From Fibrobacterales bacterium (GTDB taxonomy: Bacteria > Fibrobacterota > Fibrobacteria > Fibrobacterales > JAOPTW01): a DNA stretch of 64,000 bases. This document shows positions 39,747 through 50,804 of the stretch, piece after piece; position 1 is the stretch's first letter, and each line of letters opens with the position of its first letter. The DNA is taken from contig JAOPTX010000003.1 in assembly GCA_051532055.1 (NCBI GenBank), forward strand, positions 89,064 to 153,063, in the 5' to 3' direction. The notes under the pieces were generated by a model. That model was not told the DNA's origin. It did not search any database and saw nothing but the letters and a program-made list of their open reading frames with translations. Both the position numbers and the translations under genes were made by a program.

Positions 39747-39944
39747 TTAATTGTCGTCATTCACTTCTACACAGTCGACAATATATTTTTGTACTGCATC
39801 TCCATCTACACAAACATAATCCTGACAGCCGTCTTTAAAACTCTCTCCATCTGAATATGTTTTGCCATTAACTTCACATTCACCTAAGAAAAATGAGCAA
39901 GAAGTAAAAAGTGTTAGTAAAAACATGATAATTATTGTTTTCAT
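39747..39944 (-). CDS. Small Cys-rich lipoprotein, function unknown
   Basis: ATG 39944 preceded by AAGGAA. Lipobox LFTSC. The mature approximately 45-aa peptide has 5 further Cys (CEVNGKTYSDGESFKDGCQDYVCVDGDAVQKYIVDC). Confidence 0.55.
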   Translation of the reverse strand: MKTIIIMFLLTLFTSCSFFLGECEVNGKTYSDGESFKDGCQDYVCVDGDAVQKYIVDCVEVNDDN

Positions 39945-39994
39945 AATAGATTCCTTAAATAATAGATAAGTCAAAATTTAATAAAATATCCCCA

Positions 39995-40114
39995 TCTGAT
40001 CACCCAGCTCTAAAAATAATCGTTGCGTGTTTGCCCTGTTGGTGGGGCGTTGGAATGGGCACGCCTTTGCATGATGTTTATTTGAGAGAAAAGAAAATAT
40101 TTTTGTTTAATGAG
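39995..40114 (-). repeat. Family-1 dispersed repeat, copy A (5'-truncated)
   Basis: cgttgcgtgtttgccctgttggtggggcgttggaatgggcacgcctttgcatgatgtttatttgagagaaaagaaaatatttttgtttaatgag aligns with 45397-45490 and 42667-42760. Confidence 0.8.
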
Positions 40115-40160
40115 TAAAGGGATCATTATGAAAATAGAACCCTTACACACAACACATGGT

Positions 40161-41555
40161 CTATTCTAGCGTTTTCAAAAAAGTAATTTCAATAAGGTCT
40201 GACATGGTACTTCCATTAGGCTCAAAAACACACAATCGATAAGTTTTAAATGCATTTGGCCATTGAGTCATAAAAGTTAATTCTGCAACTTCAGTATTTG
40301 AATCCCAATGTGTATTGAGCTCTATATCTTTTCTGGCATCAACAGTAATCCAATTGCTAGAATCATACGGATCATCAATTGTTGCATCAACGGTATCAGC
40401 TCCTTGCACCACCCAGTTTTTTGGTAATCGTTCACGAAATTGATCAAATCTACCAGTCATAGTGTAATATTCGACTCTTTGTGGTTCATCAAAACTGTAA
40501 CTCACATTTGCAGTATGCGGGTATACGATATTATCCGAAACCCAATGAGTCCAATCTTCATAAGGAGATTTTCCATCAAAGAGCTTCCATGCTTTATATT
40601 CTGAACTATAAGTACTATTAGTCTGAACACGTATATCGTCTTTAACAGTTGGTATCATCAGATTGATTCTTTTGTTCTCCATAAAATATAGGTCGATAAT
40701 ATCCGCCTCAATTGCGCCATTTACTTCCATTATACAAATACGATATGCGTTATAGATTCCTGGATCTTTTACTGTGAACGCAATAGTATCCGCTAGATTA
40801 TCTGAATACCACTCAGATCCTATTTCAATATTTTCTCTTGAATCTATGGTTGTCCAATCAGAGTCATCCATAGGATCATCAGTAGTTGCACCTTCACTAT
40901 TAGAGCCTTGTACAATCCATTTCTTAGGAAGTCTATCCTTATATTCATCATATCTACCATGAATCCTATATTCTCGTATACTTCTTTCTTCGTGGAAGTC
41001 ATACATAATAACCGCAGGAAACACTTGCTTGCTATCAGACACCCAAAGAGTCCAAAGGGAGTCAACTGCATCAAATGCCTGCCACGCCTCATAATCACTA
41101 GTGAAAACAGAACTTGCTGTAGCATTATTTTTATAATCAATTGTTCTATCAATTGCATCTACTAGATCAGGATTAATATATGCAGGTAGTCCATTATCAA
41201 GGACATTTTGGTTCGATGATTGATCTACTTGCTGCTCTATGACACTACTAAAAGGACTACTTTCTAAGGAAGAATTATTGGACGTTTCATCTAAAGATGA
41301 AGGAGTTGCATTCGTAGCGGATGATGCTATAGAATTTGAACTCATAGAAGCATTTATACTAGACACCCCAGTATTAACCCCCGAAGAAAATTGGGTGTTG
41401 GGGGTAGAGGAATATACTATTAATGTACTACTCGAAATTGATGTTTGTTGACTACTTGAAAGCGTATCATCTTCAGTGACATTAATCTGACATGACATAG
41501 AAAGGAAGGTAAGTAAAGGCAAAAAATATTTTATGGCAATTTTCATATCAATCAT
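40161..41555 (-). CDS. Lipoprotein with a Ser-rich linker and two tandem discoidin/galactose-binding-like domains
   Basis: 464 aa with lipobox LSMSC. Internal duplication: AWQAFDAVDSLWTLWVSD...YRIHGRYDEYKDRLPKKWIVQGSN...DDSDWTTIDSRENIEI versus AWKLFDGKSPYEDWTHWVSD...YTMTGRFDQFRERLPKNWVVQGAD...DSSNWITVDARKDIEL. Confidence 0.7.
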   Translation of the reverse strand: MIDMKIAIKYFLPLLTFLSMSCQINVTEDDTLSSSQQTSISSSTLIVYSSTPNTQFSSGVNTGVSSINASMSSNSIASSATNATPSSLDETSNNSSLESSPFSSVIEQQVDQSSNQNVLDNGLPAYINPDLVDAIDRTIDYKNNATASSVFTSDYEAWQAFDAVDSLWTLWVSDSKQVFPAVIMYDFHEERSIREYRIHGRYDEYKDRLPKKWIVQGSNSEGATTDDPMDDSDWTTIDSRENIEIGSEWYSDNLADTIAFTVKDPGIYNAYRICIMEVNGAIEADIIDLYFMENKRINLMIPTVKDDIRVQTNSTYSSEYKAWKLFDGKSPYEDWTHWVSDNIVYPHTANVSYSFDEPQRVEYYTMTGRFDQFRERLPKNWVVQGADTVDATIDDPYDSSNWITVDARKDIELNTHWDSNTEVAELTFMTQWPNAFKTYRLCVFEPNGSTMSDLIEITFLKTLE

Positions 41556-41695
41556 TTTAATATGACTCCTTTGAATTATTAAACCATAAATATAGCCCCC
41601 CCTAAAGAGCTTTCCCTAAATCATGAGTGGCTGTGTAAAATACTGTTCACCACCAGTGAACACTCGTTGTTGAGGTTTGGAACAAAACAAATTGC

Positions 41696-42050
41696 TTATG
41701 TTTGTGAATTATTATTGATAACCATTAATTTATAACCAAAATAAATGGTTAAATCTTTACCACTCAAGTTTTTAATCCAATGTCTTGTTTTCATTGGAAT
41801 CAAAAGCTCTTCTTCGCCATTATGCGTAAACTCTTTTTCCCAAAACTTATATAGACACTCCCCTTTATCAAGATAAACCAGTTCATCACATTCAATATGT
41901 AACGCCTATTCTATGATGGCATCTGTTTTGAAAGTGCCTTTACGGAAAGAGAAACCCCTTTCTATCCAATCATTTTTTAAAAGTGGATGCCCATTCGCCA
42001 GGATCGGAATTTTCAGTAAAGAGGAGCAAGTACATCTGAGTGGTACTTCC
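41696..42050 (-). pseudogene. Cupin-fold gene remnant with an in-frame stop
   Basis: Minus-strand translation gives ...GFSFRKGTFKTDAIIE*ALHIECDELVYLDKGECLYKFWEKEFTHNGEEELLIPMKTRHWIKNLSGKDLTIYFGYKLMVINNNSQT*. In-frame TAG at 41906-41908. No start codon upstream. Confidence 0.5.
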
Positions 42051-42099
42051 TATGCCAATATTCTCGTATCATGGTTCTATTTTCACTCAAGAATGCCTT

Positions 42100-42360
42100 C
42101 ATTTCAACTCATTAATAGACCTAAAGGGCTTTTCTTTAGGAGTAACAAAAAAGTCACCATTTATACCCATTTATCAAAAACATAACCTAGAGTATAATGA
42201 AGTTGAGACCCCAATGCAGTTATTCAATAAAACATTACTTAATAGAGAAGATTTTTTTGAAGCAACATTTCTCACGGGGTATTTACTTGGAGGTAAAAAG
42301 GAAAAAAGTATACAAGATGACTTACGAGCAGTCGTTTGGATTTTAATTATCAAAATATGA
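42100..42360 (+). pseudogene. Possible fragment of a family-3 solute-binding protein gene
   Basis: ...GVTKKSPFIPIYQKHNLEYNEVETPMQLFNKTLLNREDFFEATFLTGYLLGG resembles the middle of amino-acid-type SBPs. It lacks an N-terminus and signal peptide and has the opposite orientation to its neighbours. Confidence 0.3.
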
Positions 42361-42427
42361 ATATCGAAAATTTTGATGCTTCAGATTTTTTTAAATACCA
42401 ACGAGATCATACCGGAAAAATTATACC

Positions 42428-42649
42428 CTAATACAAACGGTCGCACGCTTCATTAAAGCATACAACCCCCATCTTCTCCGTAAAGCTCTCTGATTTACCT
42501 GATTCAATGTTCAACACCACATGCCAGATGTACACACCCTGATCTATAACGGTTCCCGATTTCATTTCAGTCAGTAATACACCGCCCTCATTATATACCG
42601 GTATATCCTCTGAGGCATCGTTTGGCGAATCTACGCAGCGTTTTTGCAC
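42428..42649 (-). CDS. Hypothetical small protein (start lies inside repeat copy B)
   Basis: 73-codon ORF with a GTG start inside the family-1 repeat. No recognisable motif. Confidence 0.25.
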   Translation of the reverse strand: MQKRCVDSPNDASEDIPVYNEGGVLLTEMKSGTVIDQGVYIWHVVLNIESGKSESFTEKMGVVCFNEACDRLY

Positions 42650-42793
42650 TTCAGTGCATAGAAAAAACGTTGTGTGCTTCGGCTGTGTGTGGATCGTTGG
42701 AATGGGTATGCCTTGGCATGATATCTATTTGGGATAAAAGAAAGTATTTTTGTTTCGTGAGCGCAGTCGGGGAGGGCGGAACGATTTTTTTAG
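42632..42793 (-). repeat. Family-1 dispersed repeat, copy B (full length, about 160 bp)
   Basis: Near-identical over about 160 bp to 45361-45521. Contains the palindromes TGCACTTCAGTGCA and ATGCCTTGGCAT. Confidence 0.9.
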
Positions 42794-42848
42794 AATGTTT
42801 ACCAAGTGACATCACCACAAGAAGCGTTATCAAAAGTATTACTTTCAT
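42651..42848 (-). CDS. Small signal-peptide ORF whose C-terminal two-thirds is encoded by repeat copy B
   Basis: MKVILLITLLVVMSLG... followed by ...LTKQKYFLLSQIDIMPRHTHSNDPHTAEAHNVFSMH*. The same reading frame is open, but start-less, in copies A and C. Confidence 0.3.
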   Translation of the reverse strand: MKVILLITLLVVMSLGKHSKKIVPPSPTALTKQKYFLLSQIDIMPRHTHSNDPHTAEAHNVFSMH

Positions 42849-42887
42849 AGTTCCTTGGACTACAAGTACCTGAAGTTATTTTATTTT

Positions 42888-42923
42888 TTCCACCTGTGAT
42901 GCTGTTCCAATGCTTTGTTATAC
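42888..42923 (-). repeat. Half copy of the 57-bp attC-like palindrome, abutting the ParE stop codon
   Basis: gtgatgctgttccaatgctttgttatac (42896-42923) versus gtgatgccgctccaatgttttgttatac (46145-46172): 3 mismatches in 28. Both end 0-2 nt from a stop codon. Confidence 0.8.
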
Positions 42924-42925
42924 AT

Positions 42926-43249
42926 TTATCTTCCTAGTGATCTATTTAGAAGTGCATCATCAATATTTCTTCTACTATCAATAACTGCTAAAATTACAAT
43001 TTTCTTATTTTTTACTTTGTACATTATTCGCCACGGTGCAACAACTAATTCTCGATAAGATTTTATGTTCTGTAATTGTAATTCAGGAATAACCCTCCCT
43101 ACTTTGGGGGTATCTACTAATTTCACACAGCGTTCTTGTATTTTAGAAAATTGTTTCTTTGCTGCGTCAATACTATCAGAGCTAATGTAATCAAGAATAG
43201 ACTCTAAATCATATTGGGCACTCGGAGACCAAGCTACTGAATACTTCAT
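42926..43249 (-). CDS. Type II toxin, RelE/ParE family
   Basis: 107 aa. The pattern W.P.A..DL..I..YI......A......I.......P..GR......YRE.....YRI.Y......I.I..V...R is typical of ParE. 1-nt overlap with the upstream antitoxin. Confidence 0.8.
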   Translation of the reverse strand: MKYSVAWSPSAQYDLESILDYISSDSIDAAKKQFSKIQERCVKLVDTPKVGRVIPELQLQNIKSYRELVVAPWRIMYKVKNKKIVILAVIDSRRNIDDALLNRSLGR

Positions 43250-43518
43250 TACTTATACTTTGATTTTAGTTTAGCGAAAAACTTGGTCTGAGTTTCAAAA
43301 TCTCCATTTTCATATTCTTTTTCACTTTGTGACAAAAGCTTAAGAATTTTTAAACTATCTTGCATATTTTGATAGCTTTCAGGATCTACAATAACACCTT
43401 TAGCCTCTCCATTCTGGGTGATGAAAATGGGCCTATGTGTCTCATTGATTTGATTCAACACTTCTGAGGCATGTGCTTTTATATATGAAATTGGTTTTAT
43501 ATCTTGGACTAGATTCAT
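43249..43518 (-). CDS. Type II antitoxin, Phd/YefM family
   Basis: 89 aa. ISYIKAHASEVLNQINETHRPIFITQNGEAKGVIVDPESYQNM is a classic Phd/YefM N-terminal fold signature. Confidence 0.8.
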   Translation of the reverse strand: MNLVQDIKPISYIKAHASEVLNQINETHRPIFITQNGEAKGVIVDPESYQNMQDSLKILKLLSQSEKEYENGDFETQTKFFAKLKSKYK

Positions 43519-43630
43519 AATATCCTCCAGTCTAAATATAGTACTTAATATGGTTCGATGTAATCTATTCTTTATATTATCATAATTAAATAATTTCAGT
43601 TATATATTTGTCTCAAATAGCCACATTCTG

Positions 43631-43680
43631 GATGATGGGGCGTACACAAAAACATTTTCTTCCCTGCATGCCTATGCAGC
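43631..43680 (+). repeat. Family-1 repeat, partial inverted copy E with a palindromic insert
   Basis: gatgatggggcgtacacaaaaacattttcttccctgcatgcctatgcagc aligns with 46928-46980. Orientation is opposite to copies A-C. Confidence 0.7.
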
Positions 43681-43865
43681 TCATGATACTATAGTATGGA
43701 GTATTTTGGACCATAAAGGCATTGATGGCTTAACCGTTCAAGCTATTGATACTGGAGATGGGTTTGAAAAATTAATTGATAAACTAAAAGTCCAATACAT
43801 GCCTAAACGTTCCGAAAACGGCAGCAGTGAATTCCATATTTATGGGAATTTATTGATGCCTTTTC

Positions 43866-43901
43866 GTGTTGGGCCCAGTAGGTGATTATCGATACTTTAT
43901 C
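43866..43901. repeat. Family-2 repeat, copy F1
   Basis: gtgttgggcccagtaggtgattatcgatactttatc versus 44897-44933 gttgttgagcccagtaggtgattgtcgatactgtatc. Lies 47 nt after the RDD gene stop. Confidence 0.85.
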
Positions 43902-43947
43902 TTTTTAAATTAACAGAAGATGATAATTTGAAATAAATAGACATCTA

Positions 43948-44706
43948 TTATTTATTAATATCTTGTAACAATAATTGTTTTTTATTTACAACCAAAGTTC
44001 CAGCCATAAAATCATGTATTGCTCTACGATCTTTATTTAATTGCATAACAATTATTTCACTACACATCCAATATGTTTGAAATACTCCAATAACTATCAT
44101 AATCATTGTCCTACTTTGTGCTATTACAATATTTCTCTCTGTAAATGTTAATTCTGAAAATTTATACAAATCAATATCTGTAAATATCAAGTATGTTGAA
44201 AAAGCAGTTATAAATGCGAGACTCAAATCAATAGAAGTTCGAATCATAGCATTTGAAAACTTAATTGAATTGTTGTCAAGTTTAACAACTTGTAAACCCA
44301 TTATCATTTTGCCAATTGATGCACCAAATTTTGTTAATAAATAAATATTTAGACTCAAACACAATAACCAAAAAAACGACTGAAATACAGGGTATAGTCT
44401 TACAACATTATTTAGTATTAAGGGTTGTAGCAGAAAAAACGGAATCATAAAAACAAAACCATCAATTAAAACTGCACAAACTCTTCTTCCTGTACTGGCC
44501 AAATATGTTTTTTTACCTTTAGTATTTTCACCATTCCACAATCTGTATGATAAAATAAAACTCACAATTCCTAGCGGGATAGTAAAATACTTATCGACAC
44601 CTTCAAAAGCTTGATTTGGATTGGCTTGACTTCCCATATCAGTAAATGGCATCATCACATATATAAATCCAAATATAAAAGCAAATACTGCTAACGTTTT
44701 TTTCAT
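43948..44706 (-). CDS. RDD-family integral membrane protein
   Basis: GRRVCAVLIDGFVFMIPFF is the RDD signature, with multiple TM segments. I prefer ATG 44706 (GGAGA RBS) over the track start 44745. Confidence 0.7.
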   Translation of the reverse strand: MKKTLAVFAFIFGFIYVMMPFTDMGSQANPNQAFEGVDKYFTIPLGIVSFILSYRLWNGENTKGKKTYLASTGRRVCAVLIDGFVFMIPFFLLQPLILNNVVRLYPVFQSFFWLLCLSLNIYLLTKFGASIGKMIMGLQVVKLDNNSIKFSNAMIRTSIDLSLAFITAFSTYLIFTDIDLYKFSELTFTERNIVIAQSRTMIMIVIGVFQTYWMCSEIIVMQLNKDRRAIHDFMAGTLVVNKKQLLLQDINK

Positions 44707-44848
44707 AAATTCTCCAATAGTTATGCCTATAAACAAGTTACACAAAAAGCCTATATCAAATTAAGATAGTAAATTAGCATTACATATACAGGGCTTCGAT
44801 ACTCTTTTAAAATTCATCAATTTGTTCAAACAGTTCTCTCTCCTATCG

Positions 44849-44914
44849 CCTATTGGGCCCAACGTTCTCTATTTATAGAAAACATTGCCTGCTATCGTTG
44901 TTGAGCCCAGTAGG
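44849..44914. repeat. attC-like imperfect inverted repeat (includes family-2 copy F2)
   Basis: CCTATTGGGCCCAAC (44849-44863) / GTTGAGCCCAGTAGG (44900-44914): 13 of 15 complementary, 36-nt spacer. The arms contain GCCCAAC / GTTGAGC on the plus strand and GCTCAAC / GTTGGGC on the minus strand (RYYYAAC / GTTRRRY). Confidence 0.6.
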
Positions 44915-44989
44915 TGATTGTCGATACTGTATCACTTAAAATATTATTACAAAATTTATGTATAACTAGGTTTATGTCAGCCTAAGCAA

Positions 44990-45307
44990 TTATTTAGCTG
45001 ACACCCACCCTCCACTTCTTACCCATCCTGGATTATTAAACAATGGTTCTTCTCCAGAAACAAGTAATAAGATAGCTTTTGTAGCGTCATAGATTAATTC
45101 AGCATCCTTATCATTAACATGAATTCCTGCGTGGATAAGATTATTTCGTTTAATTCTTAATTCATTTATGAGGTTATATATTTTTTCTGGTAGTAATTCT
45201 AATGAATAGAGAAATTCAATCCTTACAGAAGCTGTATAAACATTAAAATCAGAATATTTTTTCTTTCTTTTTTGATCTTCCGATGCAACTCCCTCAATAA
45301 CTTTCAA
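44990..45307 (-). CDS. HEPN-like domain protein (possible RNase toxin), N-terminus unclear
   Basis: Rx4H motif in LRIKRNNLIHAG. The only start is TTG. The frame stays open upstream into repeat copy C without an ATG. Confidence 0.45.
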   Translation of the reverse strand: MKVIEGVASEDQKRKKKYSDFNVYTASVRIEFLYSLELLPEKIYNLINELRIKRNNLIHAGIHVNDKDAELIYDATKAILLLVSGEEPLFNNPGWVRSGGWVSAK

Positions 45308-45360
45308 TTTCCATAATTTTTCAAGAACAACTTCAATAAATGACCAACGCTTTGGCGGAG

Positions 45361-45521
45361 TACGCAGTGTTTTTGCACTTCAGTGCGTAGAAAAAACATT
45401 GTGTGCTACGGCTGTTGGTGGATCGTAGGAATGGGCATGCCTTGCCATAATGTCTATTTGGGAGAAAAGAAAATATTTTTGTTTACTGAGCGTAAGCAGG
45501 GATGTTGGAGCGATTTATTTA
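45361..45521 (-). repeat. Family-1 dispersed repeat, copy C (full length)
   Basis: tacgcagtgtttttgcacttcagtgcgtagaaaaaacattgtgtgctacggctgttggtggatcgtaggaatgggcatgccttgccataatgtctatttgggagaaaagaaaatatttttgtttactgag... starts at the stop codon of the 45519-46106 ORF. Confidence 0.9.
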
Positions 45522-46106
45522 GTCTATATTTCTTGTATTATATTGGGCAAATACTTTGTTAGCTATTGGTTGAATTGTCCACAATCCAATTGGGAAAAAC
45601 CAAAATAGAAACATACTACCTATAGATTCACCCCTAGAAGCAACTCTTCCCAACTCTATGGATTTCAAAACTCTCCCTGGAAAATAAAGCATATACAGCA
45701 TCCCAAACATAGCAGTTAAGTGCATTGGTATAATCAAAAATATCATCCATGATACATTTGGAATAATTTCAAATAATGTAGAGGCCATGAACATATAACA
45801 AAAAGAAAATGAAGATAAAAATATAAACTTCTTTACTTTCATTTGTTCCAGTCCAGAAACGAAAGATCTCAATCTTACACCGATCGATATAAACCATGTT
45901 ATACCAATTAAAAATGCAAAGGCACTAAACAACCAAAGGTATTTAAAAGATTCGAAAACTTGTTCTGGATTTTCAAAATTTTGTTTTGAATTTGATGATA
46001 TAAATTCTTGGACCATCAAAACTTGTACCGCCAATGGAACCAAAAACATCCCAATAAATAACTGCCAATGCTTAGCTTTAAGCAAAATATCAAATATTTT
46101 ATTCAT
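45519..46106 (-). CDS. Integral membrane protein (about 5 TM), function unknown
   Basis: 195-aa ORF with hydrophobic segments. RBS AAGGAG 8 nt upstream of ATG 46106. Confidence 0.6.
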   Translation of the reverse strand: MNKIFDILLKAKHWQLFIGMFLVPLAVQVLMVQEFISSNSKQNFENPEQVFESFKYLWLFSAFAFLIGITWFISIGVRLRSFVSGLEQMKVKKFIFLSSFSFCYMFMASTLFEIIPNVSWMIFLIIPMHLTAMFGMLYMLYFPGRVLKSIELGRVASRGESIGSMFLFWFFPIGLWTIQPIANKVFAQYNTRNID

Positions 46107-46115
46107 TCTTTCTCC

Positions 46116-46172
46116 TTATAACGCCTTAATTGAGCGGATCACTAGTGATGCCGCTCCAATGTTTTGTTATAC
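46116..46172. repeat. 57-bp attC-like structured palindrome filling the whole intergenic gap
   Basis: Minus strand reads GTATAAC-aaaacattg-GAGCGG-c-ATCACTAGTGAT-CCGCTC-aattaaggc-GTTATAA. This gives an outer 6-7-bp pair, a 9x9 unpaired internal loop, and an inner 6+6-bp stem with one extrahelical base. It begins immediately after the stop at 46173 and ends at the RBS of the next ORF. Confidence 0.65.
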
Positions 46173-46874
46173 TCAATCCCAATATTCGTATTCATAACTA
46201 AATTTTCTCTGAAAACCTCTTTCAGATCCAATATATTTTTGAAACACCACATCACCTACATCATTATAGTCAAATATATTTTTTGTTTTAGATATAGTTT
46301 GATTTCCTTCATAGAAGGAAGTTGATTCATGAACGACCGAAACAAGATAATTATCTTTATATGTATTAAATATTTTATGTCTCACACCTCCATCTTCTCC
46401 AGACTGAGTATACATTACAACATTTATTGGGGCATCGTATGTATAGGAATAATCATAATCCCCATCATATTTATACACCAATGCTCCTTTTAAATCATAA
46501 CGGTATCCATTAAAAATACTTGTATCATTTTTAGTAAAAAACACTTTCACGCTATAATCATCATAATACTTATACCATTGTATATTTTTTTCTGATACAA
46601 CACTGACTAAGCGCCTGTTTTTATATTTAAATTCTTTAGTTCCACTTCTACTTTTTTCTTTCTGCAGGAAACCCAAAGAATCAAACTCCAAAATGACGAC
46701 ATAAGCTATTGAGTCTGATTTTGTACTATGCACATTGATAATTTTACGTTTTAAATTAGTAGTATCACGAACAATAAATCCATATACAGATACATCGAAA
46801 TAATTATTAGTAATTCCGTTTACATTTGACAAAAGTCCTAAAATACAAACCAGGAATACTCCAACTACATACAT
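46173..46874 (-). CDS. Secreted or membrane-anchored protein, function unknown
   Basis: 233-aa ORF with N-terminal hydrophobic anchor MYVVGVFLVCILGLLSNVNG. Tyr/Asp-rich beta-type sequence with no recognised motif. Confidence 0.6.
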   Translation of the reverse strand: MYVVGVFLVCILGLLSNVNGITNNYFDVSVYGFIVRDTTNLKRKIINVHSTKSDSIAYVVILEFDSLGFLQKEKSRSGTKEFKYKNRRLVSVVSEKNIQWYKYYDDYSVKVFFTKNDTSIFNGYRYDLKGALVYKYDGDYDYSYTYDAPINVVMYTQSGEDGGVRHKIFNTYKDNYLVSVVHESTSFYEGNQTISKTKNIFDYNDVGDVVFQKYIGSERGFQRKFSYEYEYWD

Positions 46875-46927
46875 CTAATTAAACTCCTTATACAATAGAC
46901 ACAATATAATAAAATAGGCCCACCATA

Positions 46928-47042
46928 GACGGTGGGGCGTACCAAACAAAAATATTTTCTTCCCTGCATAACTATGCAGTCTCCCAAATAGATACCCTGT
47001 CCATTCCTATGTCCATCAACTATAGAAGTACGCAATAAAAAT
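46928..47042 (+). repeat. Family-1 repeat, inverted copy D with a 19-nt palindromic insert
   Basis: aaacaaaaatattttctt + CCCTGCATAACTATGCAGT + ctcccaaatagata...ccattcctatgtccatcaac aligns with the reverse complement of copy C. Confidence 0.75.
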
Positions 47043-47204
47043 ATTCCACAAATCTACTCCTATCATACAGTCAAACTCACACGACATTTGTAAAAACCCG
47101 CAAAATGAATTGATATAGCGGGTGATAAACAACATATGCGCATTATGCGGACAGCGCGATAACCACCCATCTAGCAGAAAATACTTAGATTAAATGGGGT
47201 AGAC

Positions 47205-48251
47205 TTACCCCAATGTAATGATCCGTTCAATCTCCTCACGACACGCAACAGCAACCTCTCGCTGCCTCTCCCGTGCAACCGTATTATCCTCAAACACATC
47301 ACCCACAATAACAATATTCTCATCATTAGTCCTATTAGCAGGCTCCGTATAGTTAAATGATCCAAAGATAGTGACCGCATCATCAATCACCATGAGCTTA
47401 TGATGAAGCTTCCCGAGGCCTCCCTTATTACCAATGAGCGAGATGCTAATGCCCGCCTCTACAAGGTTATGAGTGGCGGCCCATTTTTGATTCCCCTGAA
47501 GCCTATCCAGTACACCGGTAATCTGCACACCTCGTTGCTGTGCTGCAATCAGCGCATCATCAATACCAGAACTGTGAGCAAAGGTAAAGACCGCAAAGTC
47601 AATCCGCACTCGTGCCTTAAGAATTTGCTTCATAATCTCTAGTTCAGGAGTATGGTCGGGGGAGAAGAGTACCCTGATTCTGATTCGGTCTACGGTACTG
47701 TTAATTGGGGCTACGCTTTTCATGATGCTCTCACGACCAAATCTCCCTGATTTAATCTCATCGAACTCAATACGAAATTGATTGGCGATAGTCTTATTAT
47801 GAATAACGATCACATGGTTCAGGTTTTTAGTCACCCCAGTGTCGGTAAAGTTCGTTGAGCCCGTGAGAACCGAATCACTACATGTCATAAACTTTTGATG
47901 AAAGATTGCGCTATTAAAATCAACCTTCACGTCGATATCTGCCCGATATAAGGCACTGAAGAGTTCTCTGTTTATTTCGTGGCTTCCCGATGGTTCAAAA
48001 GGGGATACTTGTTTCCGAGAGGCCAACAGATAACTCTGCTCAAGAACGATATCAATAACGACTCCTCGACTGCGTGCCCGTATGAGCGCCTCGGTAATCT
48101 CTCTATTGTCTATCTCCTGAAGAGCCACACAGAGGTTCTCTCTCGGTTTAGCGTCATCAATAAAGCCAATGATTGGTTCTAACAGTGAATCCGGCCCGCT
48201 TTGCTCCTTTGGGCCTAAATAGAGCTTGAAACTGCGTGCACTATAGCTCAT
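47205..48251 (-). CDS. Phospholipase D superfamily protein with two HKD motifs (no signal peptide)
   Basis: 348 aa. HKD motifs FHQKFMTCSDSVLTGSTNFT and LHHKLMVIDDAVTIFGSFNYT. The start overlaps the upstream stop (TAATG). Confidence 0.85.
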   Translation of the reverse strand: MSYSARSFKLYLGPKEQSGPDSLLEPIIGFIDDAKPRENLCVALQEIDNREITEALIRARSRGVVIDIVLEQSYLLASRKQVSPFEPSGSHEINRELFSALYRADIDVKVDFNSAIFHQKFMTCSDSVLTGSTNFTDTGVTKNLNHVIVIHNKTIANQFRIEFDEIKSGRFGRESIMKSVAPINSTVDRIRIRVLFSPDHTPELEIMKQILKARVRIDFAVFTFAHSSGIDDALIAAQQRGVQITGVLDRLQGNQKWAATHNLVEAGISISLIGNKGGLGKLHHKLMVIDDAVTIFGSFNYTEPANRTNDENIVIVGDVFEDNTVARERQREVAVACREEIERIITLG

Positions 48252-49225
48252 TAGTAACGCTCCGTAATTTCTATATAGGCCGGCTCACTCGACCGAAACA
48301 AGAAGGATACCCCAATAAATACCCGAAAGATATCATCAACCATCCGCACATTATACAGGTCTTGCCCTTTCTCTGCTTTAACAAACACACCGACACCAGA
48401 AGGATACGTAAAGTTCCCAAAGAGTGATACATTGTAAGGAGTGATCTGAGAGTGCTGAGAGGGGAGATACTGAGCCGATACTCCATACCGAAGTTGCGTC
48501 ATTTCATTAAACATCATAAGATAGTGATGCCCTGCTACCTCAACCAAATATCTGTTCATTGAGTAGAACTTCGTATCAAGCGTATTATATCCGGCAATGG
48601 AAAAGCCAAAGAGCCGATCAATATAGCGCGTATACCCCAAAGTTACCTCAAGAGCATCTTCTACCATTCCTGTACCTGGGTAAAACCCCATAACCTTCAT
48701 GAGCTTTAATTTACTTCGTACAAAATTTGTAGAGAACTCTCCACTTTTTCTATTGAGTTGTTCACCCAGGTTGAGTTCATCTAAGTTACTGTACAGAGCC
48801 TGACAGGTTGAGTCTGCATCTTCGGAGCTCCCAAAAGCACACCCCGATTGACCATTAGAATAATGCCCATGTTCAATCATAGGAGTAATAAAACTCTTGA
48901 TACTACTCACATATCGGGTAGGGGCATAAGAGGCGGATACTCTATAGCTCGGCATTATCACAGGCATTGAGTTTTTATACAGCATCCTAATGTGTGGGTC
49001 AAAGATGATTGAGAGCCTTTGATAGGTACTATCCTGATAGATAAATGGGGTAACGCCATCTATAAAGGGCATTTTAAGTATCGGTCGCGCTTCCATAACT
49101 ACTTTTTCATTAAAATCATTCCCCGTCGGAGTACTCCACCCTATAAATGGAGTCTCCTCTAGGGTTTGATATTGAGCAAATAAAGTTGTTATTAAGGTCA
49201 GTAATAATAGTTGTATTTTTTTCAT
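48251..49225 (-). CDS. Outer-membrane phospholipase A (OMPLA/PldA)-like beta-barrel protein
   Basis: 324 aa with signal peptide MKKIQLLLLTLITTLFAQ. EHGHYSNGQSG resembles the OMPLA catalytic HxSNG motif (E. coli NHDSNGRS). Alternating beta-strand-like sequence ending in an aromatic-rich C-terminus. Confidence 0.45.
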   Translation of the reverse strand: MKKIQLLLLTLITTLFAQYQTLEETPFIGWSTPTGNDFNEKVVMEARPILKMPFIDGVTPFIYQDSTYQRLSIIFDPHIRMLYKNSMPVIMPSYRVSASYAPTRYVSSIKSFITPMIEHGHYSNGQSGCAFGSSEDADSTCQALYSNLDELNLGEQLNRKSGEFSTNFVRSKLKLMKVMGFYPGTGMVEDALEVTLGYTRYIDRLFGFSIAGYNTLDTKFYSMNRYLVEVAGHHYLMMFNEMTQLRYGVSAQYLPSQHSQITPYNVSLFGNFTYPSGVGVFVKAEKGQDLYNVRMVDDIFRVFIGVSFLFRSSEPAYIEITERY

Positions 49226-49380
49226 AAATATCTCTCTTCAAATCGCGGTTTTTTTTATTTAAACAGTGCGAAGCACTTTACACAACACATCCGCATTGAT
49301 CCCCACAACCAATATCACCATTTCCACTCCAACCATCAACAAAGGAAAAATTCCATTTTTTCCGAGCCAATAAGGGAATA

Positions 49381-49563
49381 GCTATGTGTTCCAGCTCTCT
49401 GCGAAGAGAAGCGCGCCTGGTCACAATGCTAGGCATTGTTGCTCGGCCAAGCAACCGGGGGCTCCCAAAGGGTACGCGCTTCGGCGTATCCATTGGTGGG
49501 GGTCTGGGGGAGAAGCCCCCGGGAACTCAAATAAAAAACCAATAAAATTAAGGGAACACATAG
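49381..49563 (+). ncRNA. Candidate structured RNA (unknown class) in a GC-rich island
   Basis: 11-bp closing helix CTATGTGTTCC (49381-49391) / GGAACACATAG (49553-49563). Internal hairpins: TCTCT-GCGA-AGAGA (49396-49409), ACAATGC-tag-GCATTGT (49423-49439), GTTGCT-cggcca-AGCAAC (49438-49455), GGGTACGC-gcttcg-GCGTATCC (49470-49491), GGGGG-agaag-CCCCC (49506-49520). The GNRA and UUCG loops read correctly only on the plus strand. Confidence 0.35.
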
Positions 49564-49582
49564 AACGCATATCCCAAAATCA

Positions 49583-49864
49583 TCAAAGAAGAACGAGCCT
49601 CCCCGTTGCTTCCAACGCATTATTGGCCGAGAAAAACTCACTCCCATGCGTATAACGAACCTTAAGAATAGAGAACGAATCCTCATCCTTGCAGAGCTCC
49701 TTAATCCGACCAAAGTTACGATTACTACACTTGGTGAGCCACACGCCCTCTGAAAGCGCGAGGTTTTTTTGAAAAAGTCCTGATTGTTCCATGGATTGCA
49801 GTTTGTCTTGTGGGCACTGAATTACGGTCAGGAAGTCGAAATTGTTTGGTATTGATATATTCAT
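49583..49864 (-). CDS. Hypothetical 93-aa protein
   Basis: ATG 49864 preceded by GAGAGG. The track ORF extends to 49921. No recognised motif. Confidence 0.4.
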   Translation of the reverse strand: MNISIPNNFDFLTVIQCPQDKLQSMEQSGLFQKNLALSEGVWLTKCSNRNFGRIKELCKDEDSFSILKVRYTHGSEFFSANNALEATGRLVLL

Positions 49865-49934
49865 AATTACCTCTCTTGGTAGGTGTAAGCGAGTGCACCG
49901 CTTATTCTGCTCGTGATGCACTCACCATATACAG

Positions 49935-50804
49935 CTACGCTACCTCTTCTTCAAATTCAATCTCTTCTTCTATGCCGTCTTCAGAATCCATAGGGAGGAG
50001 TACTTCATCCTCTTCTATGGTGTTTTCCATCCGAGCTTTATTATTTTGAGAGCGCGAGTATTTACTAAAGAATTTACGGAGTATTTTTTTGTCTTTGTTA
50101 AACACCAAACGAGCCCATCTGAGAACAGTAGCCTCTTCGAGTTGAAGTAATGTGATCACCTTATCACGAATTTTGCGTTCTTCAGTTACCGCAAAGCGAT
50201 GGAGCTCTGCATCTTTTTGAATCGTACCCACTTCAAATGCGAGATTGGCAGCATTTTTGAGTTGCTCAAAATCGAAGTTGATATCTTCGAGTTGTGTACG
50301 AATTGCATCAGAAGGGTGTGCAAGAATATGGAGGTCTTCAATAAGGTCAGCAATGGTTCTCCCTTGTGACACCTCTTTGATGAGCTTTGTTACAGCATCA
50401 TTGCCAAATGCAACAAAACGATACTCGTTAAGGAGGTCGTTACGGAGTTCAAAAGCCAGAGGGGAGAGTGCCTTCCAGCGTTTACGACTTTCGCTATATG
50501 AGTCGGTGGCCCATGCCATACGACTCTGTGCATGGCGGTATGCACCGATAAGCTTCTCTAATCTTGTTGAGATTTTGGTGTCGAAGTTCTTATCGAGAAG
50601 ACGCTTTTCATTGTGTTTAATTATGGTGATCAAGCCCTCTACCTCTGTCGAAAAAATCTTGAGTGGTCTGTTGGGTCGGGTTGTTTCATCATCGGGTACC
50701 GATTGAATGGTTTCGTACATCTCATCGAAGTACTCGGCGCTTTTATTCTCAGAAAGGGTAGAGAATAGTGCTTCTTTAGTGTTGTAGAGTGTATTATCTG
50801 ACAT
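49935..50804 (-). CDS. Hypothetical protein, paralog A (acidic C-terminal tail)
   Basis: 289 aa with an AAGGA RBS. The C-terminal block ERKIRDKVITLLQLEEATVLRWARLVFNKDKKILRKFFSKYSR parallels the gene at 51850-52641. The tail reads EEDEVLLPMDSEDGIEEEIEFEEEVA. Confidence 0.65.
   Translation of the reverse strand: MSDNTLYNTKEALFSTLSENKSAEYFDEMYETIQSVPDDETTRPNRPLKIFSTEVEGLITIIKHNEKRLLDKNFDTKISTRLEKLIGAYRHAQSRMAWATDSYSESRKRWKALSPLAFELRNDLLNEYRFVAFGNDAVTKLIKEVSQGRTIADLIEDLHILAHPSDAIRTQLEDINFDFEQLKNAANLAFEVGTIQKDAELHRFAVTEERKIRDKVITLLQLEEATVLRWARLVFNKDKKILRKFFSKYSRSQNNKARMENTIEEDEVLLPMDSEDGIEEEIEFEEEVA

Follow-up and report, generated by a model that had tools for sequence, protein, structure and literature searches.

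A small island of low GC content lies at 40-50 kb of the window, by which we mean the whole 64-kb stretch of a MAG of an uncultured Fibrobacterales bacterium that was analysed here. GC content is 0.31-0.37 over 40-48 kb and 0.44 at 48-50 kb, and the GC skew is inverted relative to both flanks. The island encodes a Phd/ParE pair, an RDD protein, a HEPN-like fragment and a PLD nuclease, while proteins with Fib_succ_major and DUF4423 domains are found in the neighbourhood. Within it, a palindromic element of 57 nt occupies positions 46116..46172 between two ORFs of the minus strand, and part of the same element recurs behind the toxin gene.

The ORF that ends at the element (46173..46874, minus strand; NCBI OCC49_01070, on a contig of 261,972 bp) encodes a protein of 233 aa with a signal-peptide-like N-terminus and is presumed to be a cassette gene. 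This protein is an ORFan: among 5.8 billion proteins only itself was recovered, and neither Pfam nor PADLOC returned a match. The ORF on the other side (45519..46106, minus strand; OCC49_01065) encodes a membrane protein of 195 aa from a broad family of proteins of about 200 aa, with 1102 representatives at E<=1e-3 and about 35% identity. No attC site adjoins the homologues of this protein at the four loci L143-L146. Further along the same strand lies a Phd/YefM-ParE toxin-antitoxin operon (42926..43518; Pfam PF02604, E 4e-17, and PF05016, E 1e-15), directly upstream of the partial copy. Two ParE homologues (L033 and L034, with 76% and 56% identity) have no attC past their stop. The homologues of ParE and of the 195-aa protein thus give no independent support for the idea that those genes travel as cassettes.

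Integron functions other than attC sites were also searched for. Neither a Phage_integrase domain nor any other recombinase domain was found when 30 ORFs of at least 100 aa, which comprise all mid-sized non-nested ORFs, were compared with Pfam; the six largest ORFs (875-2145 aa), nested ORFs and smaller ORFs fall outside this set. The tyrosine-recombinase box-II motif was not found in a six-frame translation of the window, no attI was recognisable in its 64 kb, and a search of the window for tRNA and tmRNA genes found none.

The island also carries a separate family of foldback repeats. Three P-arms (45522-45340, 42793-42621 and 40123-40015) each start at or just past an ORF stop, and two H-arms (47036-46907 and 43679-43615) are inverted with respect to them. 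At its end, each H-arm has a hairpin resembling a terminator, and beyond this a conserved flank leads into the Shine-Dalgarno sequence of the next gene. One true metagenome relative (L035) was recovered, where an H-arm and a facing P-arm, placed between two convergent ORFs, make up one foldback of about 390 nt (-101 kcal/mol, z -12.6). A Logan contig (L001) breaks inside two of the P-arms, as is expected of a multi-copy repeat. The copies at 40015-40123, 42621-42793, 45340-45530, 46907-47036 and 43615-43679 were considered as candidates for the real attC sites of the locus and rejected: they occur in both orientations relative to the ORFs, four of the five fold as single-stranded DNA with z about 0 (only 46900-47045 reaches z -3.3), and none is matched by R1, the attC covariance model described below.

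Structure of the 57-nt element and its truncated copy

Read on the minus strand from 46172 down to 46116, the element is GTATAACAAAACATTGGAGCGGCATCACTAGTGATCCGCTCAATTAAGGCGTTATAA, and it is followed by GGAGAAAGA and then by the ATG at 46106. Its first base directly adjoins, on the same strand, the TGA of the 233-aa ORF (46173-46175), and its last base lies 9 nt upstream of the ATG of the 195-aa ORF. This sequence and its start immediately after the stop codon had been described in the first-pass annotation and are borne out by the minus-strand reading. The annotation had also noted that the end of the element merges into an AAGGAG motif 8 nt before the ATG. The overlap is real, with the Shine-Dalgarno sequence of the 195-aa ORF (46117-46112) running into the terminal box of the element; the distance to the ATG is 5 nt instead of 8. 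An identical element is present in the independent Logan assembly of run SRR21695763.

Among the attC sites that class-1 integrons carry, attC_aadA7 is a classic short example, and AttC2 is of the same aadA type. AttC2, an oligonucleotide used in IntI1 strand-transfer assays, has the sequence GTCTAAC AATTC GTT-C-AAGCCG-A-CG ... CG CGGCTT AAC TCAGGC GTTAGAT, and the crossover falls at G|TT of the attC core (PMC2117344). The element can be parsed in the same manner, with the window minus strand as the top strand. It opens with the R'' inverse core GTATAAC (46166..46172), which matches RYYYAAC except for an A at position 3. The left unpaired central spacer AAAAC (46161..46165) has 5 nt, as does AATTC of AttC2. 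The L'' box ATTGGAGC (46153..46160) reads ATT-G-GAGC, with an extrahelical G (46157 or 46156) as a bulge at position 4, comparable with GTT-C-AAGC of AttC2. A variable terminal structure (46136..46152) then comprises GG, the extrahelical C46150, the perfect palindrome ATCACTAGTGAT (ATCACT/AGTGAT) and CC. On the returning arm, the L' box GCTCAAT (46129..46135), placed by this parse and by the alignment to R1, is followed by the right unpaired central spacer TAAGGC of 6 nt (46123..46128), five of whose six positions are those of TCAGGC in AttC2. The R' core GTTATAA (46116..46122), which contains the predicted crossover point, closes the element.

The agreement with AttC2 extends to every box. 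Both sites have an R'' box of 7 nt, a spacer of 5 nt, an L'' box of 8 nt with a bulge at position 4, an L' box of 7 nt, a spacer of 6 nt and an R' box of 7 nt, with six pairs between the bulges (AAGCCG and then A in AttC2), and 29 of the 40 R-spacer-L columns are identical. As in class-1 attC sites, the AAC and GTT triplets are present and the site lies right after an ORF stop on the coding strand, while its 57 nt place it at the short end of the size range of the family. The differences from AttC2 are these: R'' has an A at position 3 (GTATAAC), R' is GTTATAA, and the extrahelical bases of the bottom strand are C and G, whereas those of AttC2 are G and T.

This parse changes several details of the first-pass annotation, which had described a 9x9 unpaired region around an inner stem of 12 bp with one extrahelical base and had considered the spacers longer than in textbook attC sites. 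In the minimum free energy structure of the plus strand, ATTG (46160-46157) and CAAT (46132-46129) form four further pairs, which leaves a second base bulged out. The inner stem thereby comprises 15 pairs and two extrahelical bases, both on the stop-proximal arm and 6 bp apart (G46157 or G46156, and C46150, on the top strand; C and G on the bottom strand), and the spacers shrink to the textbook lengths of 5 and 6 nt. Two extrahelical bases arise because the dyad symmetry is imperfect. The cores, complementary at six of seven positions, had each been said to deviate from consensus by one base. This holds for R'' against RYYYAAC; R' deviates from GTTRRRY at two positions, and all deviations lie outside the AAC and GTT triplets, both of which are intact. 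With spacers of 5 and 6 nt and deviations confined to positions outside the triplets, the two caveats that had been attached to the attC reading thus become smaller.

Single-stranded DNA folding, which the annotation had suggested as a check, favours the same structure. The plus strand reaches -9.4 kcal/mol (z -4.5; 0 of 200 shuffled versions did as well) and the minus strand -9.2 kcal/mol (z -3.4; 1 of 200 did), and the minimum free energy fold of the bottom strand shows the R box, the spacer and the L box with two bulges. A strict geometry scan was also made for AAC...GTT cores complementary at 6 or more of 7 positions, with 5/6 spacers and with an 8/8 L box containing a single bulge. This element is the sole match in the window, where 0.015 matches per 64 kb are expected at random.

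The second site, at 42891..42923 on the minus strand, is truncated and contains only a left half, namely R'' (GTATAAC), the spacer AAAGC, L'' and the first part of the stem. It starts 2 nt downstream of the ParE stop and shares 28 of 33 nt (85%) with the intact site. The first-pass annotation had reported this recurrence of the stop-proximal arm, with 3 mismatches in 28 nt, as well as the absence of the distal arm, and both observations stand: ParE is confirmed by Pfam (E 1e-15), and folding of the downstream sequence found no complementary right arm. A long-loop attC with a more distant right arm was considered for this half copy and rejected, since 42776-42923 folds with z +0.8 to +1.1 on both strands. 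Once the sequence was cut at 42897 to permit a partial match, the copy aligned to positions 1-26 of R1 (13.7 bits), which identifies it as the R''-spacer-L'' half of an attC; in the uncut sequence the model does not detect it. The truncated and intact sites are 3.25 kb apart on the same strand, after co-oriented ORFs, and they have bases outside the conserved boxes in common (GCATCAC), which is what attC sites from one array would be expected to show.

Scores against an attC model and relatives in other genomes

The first-pass annotation had proposed that the element be scored with an attC covariance model, and a model, R1, was built here. Its five seeds are the class-1 AttC2 and four sites from other genomes, namely the pair L008a and L008c, which lie at L008 1795-1842 and L008 3-135, together with L028 6263-6350 and L029 6115-6200. 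The seed loci belong to Arcobacteraceae and cyanobacteria, and the seeds were not picked by similarity to the window. For construction, the variable centre was collapsed, the seeds were aligned and the canonical pairing was imposed, which gave 48 model positions.

Applied to the whole window with filters off, R1 matches 46116-46172 over its full length (positions 1-48 of 48) at 44.9 bits and E 8.4e-10, a value to be read with the rough calibration of the E-values in mind and with the fact that four of the five seeds come from loci reached via a window-derived pattern, which the seeds themselves do not match. The match is confined to the minus strand, which is the strand of the ORFs. The next-best match in the 64 kb has 13 bits and E about 1, and the same search found no second intact attC in the window. 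For comparison, R1 gives 44-47 bits on its own seeds and 25-35 bits on other attC sites, and a control of 506,576 bases, AT-rich and taken from unrelated metagenome DNA, gave no match at E<=10. Together with the canonical geometry, this score supports the attC-like reading that had been put forward from inspection, and the proposed check returned a full-length match (44.9 bits, E 8e-10). Rfam families were uninformative. No match reached the gathering threshold anywhere in the window, including for the 'Transposase-resistance' motif that matches class-1 attC sites; at E<=5 nothing relevant was found over 39800-47300, the only match being a spurious GIR1 elsewhere, and at E<=1 nothing relevant was found at 49.1-51.9 kb.

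Related sites occur in several other bacterial groups. A scan of GTDB with the left-arm pattern GTATAACAAANCATTGGANC, covering one genome for each of 185,579 species (the source genome is absent from the representatives), returned 31 loci, of which about half are estimated to be chance matches inside genes. The remaining loci hold attC-like elements and belong to cyanobacteria, Arcobacteraceae and Melioribacter. Complete attC-like sites that share this left arm were found in Arcobacteraceae, Nostocales, Cylindrospermum, Synechocystis and Microcoleus, and a geometry scan of the GTDB loci brought up additional attC sites to which the left-arm pattern does not apply.

For example, the Arcobacteraceae locus L008 has three attC sites within 1.9 kb on one strand, each past a small ORF, and L029 has two. 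Sites with this left arm thus occur in cassette clusters. No integrase was found within the 8 kb of either locus. Across L008, L009, L024, L027, L028 and L029, the attC sites share with the window element a near-identical left arm, GTATAACAAAnCATTGGAGC(GG), and an equally near-identical right arm, (C)CGCTCAAT-6 nt-GTTA, and their model scores of 25-47 bits bracket the 44.9 bits of the window site. They differ in having mostly longer terminal structures (69-133 nt in total, with one of 48 nt), and several are arranged in clusters of two or three, whereas the window site stands alone and belongs to another phylum. Searches beyond GTDB added nothing to this set: a specific 28-nt pattern had no match in JGI metagenomes, and a looser 20-nt left-arm pattern had two matches in IMG/VR, neither of which is an attC and both of which are attributed to chance.

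Weighing the identity of the element

We consider it probable, at about 0.85, that the element is an integron-type attC site ('59-base element') at the 3' end of an ORFan, which marks that ORFan as a gene cassette, with no integrase found in the 64 kb. Every attC feature of sequence and structure that can be computed here is present in it, while the parts that make up a complete integron or a CALIN are not all there. False positives are concentrated among calls of single attC sites (PMC4889954), and several other explanations for a palindrome at this position were weighed against the attC reading.

An intercistronic RNA hairpin that stabilises mRNA or serves as a processing site, attenuator or terminator would account for the exact fit of the element into the space between two co-oriented ORFs and for its contact with the downstream Shine-Dalgarno sequence, and the RNA of 46100-46180 on the minus strand does fold (-17.1 kcal/mol, z -2.5). 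A terminator is excluded because no U-tract follows the stem, where the sequence continues with AATTAAGGCG, and a scan for terminator consensus is silent there. More generally, an RNA hairpin needs neither an asymmetric 5/6-nt loop nor AAC/GTT triplets nor bulges at attC positions, and if the likeness to attC were incidental, an attC-model E of about 1e-9 would be a coincidence. We regard this explanation as improbable. It is known that attC sites, as a by-product, influence expression through their hairpins, and an RNA hairpin is therefore better viewed as a side effect of the site than as a rival identity. Slightly less credible still is a dispersed palindromic repeat of the REP or MITE type, unrelated to integrons, an idea encouraged by the partial second copy 3.25 kb away and by the abundance of another dispersed repeat family in the island. 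Such a repeat would have to be reconciled with only 1.5 copies in 64 kb, both directly past stops on the coding strand, with boxes that match attC sites of unrelated phyla and of class-1 integrons, with relatives that sit in attC clusters, and with the absence of copies from the JGI metagenomes searched.

The 12-bp centre invites a different thought, since ATCACTAGTGAT is a perfect palindrome 30 nt upstream of the ATG and could be an operator through which a dimeric DNA-binding protein controls the 195-aa gene. No regulator gene is adjacent, however, no promoter-like site overlaps ATCACTAGTGAT, and the half copy behind ParE retains the outer arm and not the central palindrome. An operator would also leave the flanking R and L boxes and the model score unexplained, and we hold it to be very improbable. 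A chance palindrome in AT-rich intergenic DNA is the least probable account of all: short hairpins are common in intergenic DNA, but the fold z-scores of -3.4 and -4.5, the expectation of 0.015 such geometries per 64 kb, the model E of 8e-10 and the 0 matches in the 506-kb control effectively refute it.

Taking the element as an attC site, the question becomes which class of integron-derived locus describes it best. It differs from class-1 integrons in its setting on a Fibrobacterales chromosome, where no integrase, attI or Pc promoter was found nearby and no resistance gene is present. A CALIN is defined by at least two detectable attC sites within 4 kb and no integrase. Here, two attC-type sites do lie within 4 kb on one strand, after co-oriented ORFs (one set of which is a toxin-antitoxin module), and no integrase was found, but only one of the two is intact, and the locus thus falls short of the two-site definition. 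A SALIN, by comparison, consists of a single attC and a CDS with no other att site or integrase nearby, and its proposed origin is either cassette insertion at a genomic GWT site or the decay of an array. With 3400 SALINs in RefSeq, a lone attC is already known as a common arrangement. The locus agrees with a SALIN in having one intact attC on one ORF and no other intact att site or intI found nearby; it differs in the truncated second attC within 4 kb and in a left junction that reads G|TA. The truncated second site makes decay of a small CALIN at least as likely an origin as the insertion of a single cassette. The locus is thus best described as a SALIN that has an ORFan cassette and, 3.25 kb away and behind a toxin-antitoxin module, a sister site that has decayed; taken together, the two sites resemble what remains of a small cluster of cassettes.

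Possible mobility and biological meaning

How such a site would work can be outlined by analogy with studied integrons. When the window plus strand, which is the bottom strand (46116 to 46172), becomes single-stranded during replication, conjugative entry or cruciform extrusion, it would fold into the hairpin. The R box of 6-7 bp and the L box, kept apart by the 5/6-nt unpaired spacer, would each bind one IntI monomer, and the extrahelical bottom-strand bases (C46156 or C46157, and G46150) would mark this strand as the one to be recombined. The predicted point of strand exchange is in the conserved triplet, where it falls between G46122 and T46121 (top-strand notation). By exchange with attI, with another attC or with a genomic GWT site, the cassette would be excised or inserted. 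IntI binding, the choice of strand, the point of cleavage and past mobility are features that we infer for this site from established integron biology. In mRNA, the same hairpin would probably form between the two ORFs (-17 kcal/mol); as a side effect, it may lower the expression of the 195-aa gene, whose Shine-Dalgarno sequence abuts R'.

Upstream of the 233-aa ORF, no clean cassette boundary with a GTT core was found. A candidate boundary is GTATAAGGAG (46884..46893, minus strand), a direct repeat of GTTATAAGGAG at 46122-46112. The 9-mer TATAAGGAG occurs three times in the window, counting both strands, and two of these copies (46892-46884 and 46120-46112) bracket the unit of ORF233 and attC. 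As direct repeats they are suggestive of a possible cassette boundary. The left junction reads G|TA, not G|TT or GWT, and a common strong Shine-Dalgarno context could also explain the TATAAGGAG repeats. Without the unit, the repeat flank upstream of it would directly adjoin the Shine-Dalgarno sequence of the 195-aa gene, as would be the case if a cassette had been inserted there. If the cassette is mobile, the empty site would be GTATAAGGAG (46893) joined to AAAGAATG (46111), and the circular form would be R' joined to TTTAATTAG.

A wider reading connects the attC site with the foldback repeats. It holds that an active integron exists in this Fibrobacterales lineage or existed there until recently, that IntI inserted ORF233 and its attC at G|T(T)ATAAGGAG directly before the 195-aa gene, and that this happened inside an island whose genes are set apart by foldback elements of about 390 nt from a second, undescribed family, which would bring two cassette-junction systems together in one locus. 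We regard this combined scenario as unlikely, if worth stating. If it were true, each foldback of about 390 nt would supply a terminator to one gene and a promoter or Shine-Dalgarno sequence to the next.

The locus reveals no new mechanism and is a new example of a known signal of mobile genes. In practical terms, a natural attC as short as 57 nt could be used in recombination assays. For the island itself, the attC flags a small mosaic region as horizontally acquired, with an ORFan secreted protein, a membrane protein, a Phd/ParE module, a HEPN fragment and a PLD nuclease. Across cyanobacteria, Arcobacteraceae and the window, the R and L boxes are near-identical, and they are close to those of class 1, which would point either to a flow of cassettes across phyla or to a strong constraint imposed by IntI. 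Within the open literature searched, no paper was found that reports an integron integrase, or attC sites of their own, for Fibrobacterota; three listed papers that name Fibrobacter, integron and attC together do not appear to deal with integrons of this phylum. The site described here would mean that integron cassettes, or at least attC sites, reach the Fibrobacterota.

Composition and gene content of the island

Across window positions 40001-50000, GC skew is negative, and it is positive over most of the remaining window, including both flanks. GC content also falls to 0.31-0.37 between 40 and 48 kb, a combination compatible with the island having been acquired or inverted. Two gene fragments lie within this region: a 22-codon signal-peptide start (MKVILLITLLVVMSLGKHSKK..., 42848-42795), which runs directly into one of the repeat arms described below (a P-arm), and a 105-aa DUF4145/HEPN-like piece (44990-45307). 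Both point to a mosaic, decaying island. Further along, a GC-rich patch of ~160 nt (...GGGGGCTTCTCCCCCAGACCCCCACC..., ~49400-49560) sits in an AT-rich intergenic stretch; it matches no Rfam family and contains no clear ORF.

The island also carries a gene for a tandem-HKD PLD nuclease (47205-48251), which overlaps a 324-aa gene (48251-49225) by one base. The nuclease contains two PLDc_2 stretches, and its DrmC/DpdK-like PADLOC matches are weak. The 324-aa protein belongs to no known family. Together, the two genes may form a defence module.

Other repeats

Besides attC, a second family of repeats is present in the window; its arms measure 110-170 nt and come in two forms (47036-46907, 45522-45340, 43679-43615, 42793-42621 and 40123-39950). 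P-arms start at ORF stops. H-arms are inverted and end in a terminator-like hairpin, followed by a conserved flank that supplies the Shine-Dalgarno (SD) sequence of the next gene. In a metagenome contig carrying a relative of the family (L035:455-850), one H-arm faces one P-arm, and together they make up a single ~390-nt foldback (z -12.6). When the window is compared with this contig, the H hairpin shows one compensatory pair. These elements are not attC-like; possible identities are a MITE, a foldback element or a novel type of junction between genes.

A different direct repeat of ~80 nt (44860-44960 and 43832-43910, 77-86% identity) flanks the RDD-family gene. Within its upstream copy lies an inverted repeat, CCTACTGGGCTCAAC ... 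GTTGGGCCCAATAGG, whose inner ends can be read as perfect RYYYAAC and GTTRRRY cores. This inverted repeat is without L boxes, and the attC covariance model gives no hit to it. At the locus of a homologue of the 195-aa membrane protein (L143), one terminator-like hairpin, AAGAGAACACGCCCAnAGCCTGTTCT, occurs as two direct copies, one on either side of the gene (4940-4975 and 5600-5635).

attC-type sequences in other organisms

In cyanobacteria, the same left arm as in the window's attC, GTATAACAAATCATTGGAGCGGAC, frequently lacks a right arm to match it (L004, L005, L010, L011, L012, L021, L028 and L029). Ahead of the arm lies a conserved motif, AATAATTGTTAAGCGATCG; this motif has an R'-like GTTAAGC 7 nt upstream and is able to pair with R''. 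The arrangement may mark an R'-loop-R'' junction where two sites adjoin, or it may be a derived repeat. The minimum length usually cited for attC is 57-60 nt, yet an attC-type site in an Arcobacteraceae cluster (L008:1795-1842, minus strand; GCATAACAAAGCATTGCAGCGGACAAGCCGCTGAATGCGGCGTTATAC) is shorter, at only 48 nt.

A direct repeat around ORF233 and attC

The unit formed by ORF233 and its attC is bracketed by a direct repeat, G-T(T)ATAAGGAG (46893-46884 and 46122-46112), and TATAAGGAG occurs only three times in the window. Such a repeat could simply reflect a shared SD context. It could also be the footprint of cassette integration in front of the 195-aa gene.
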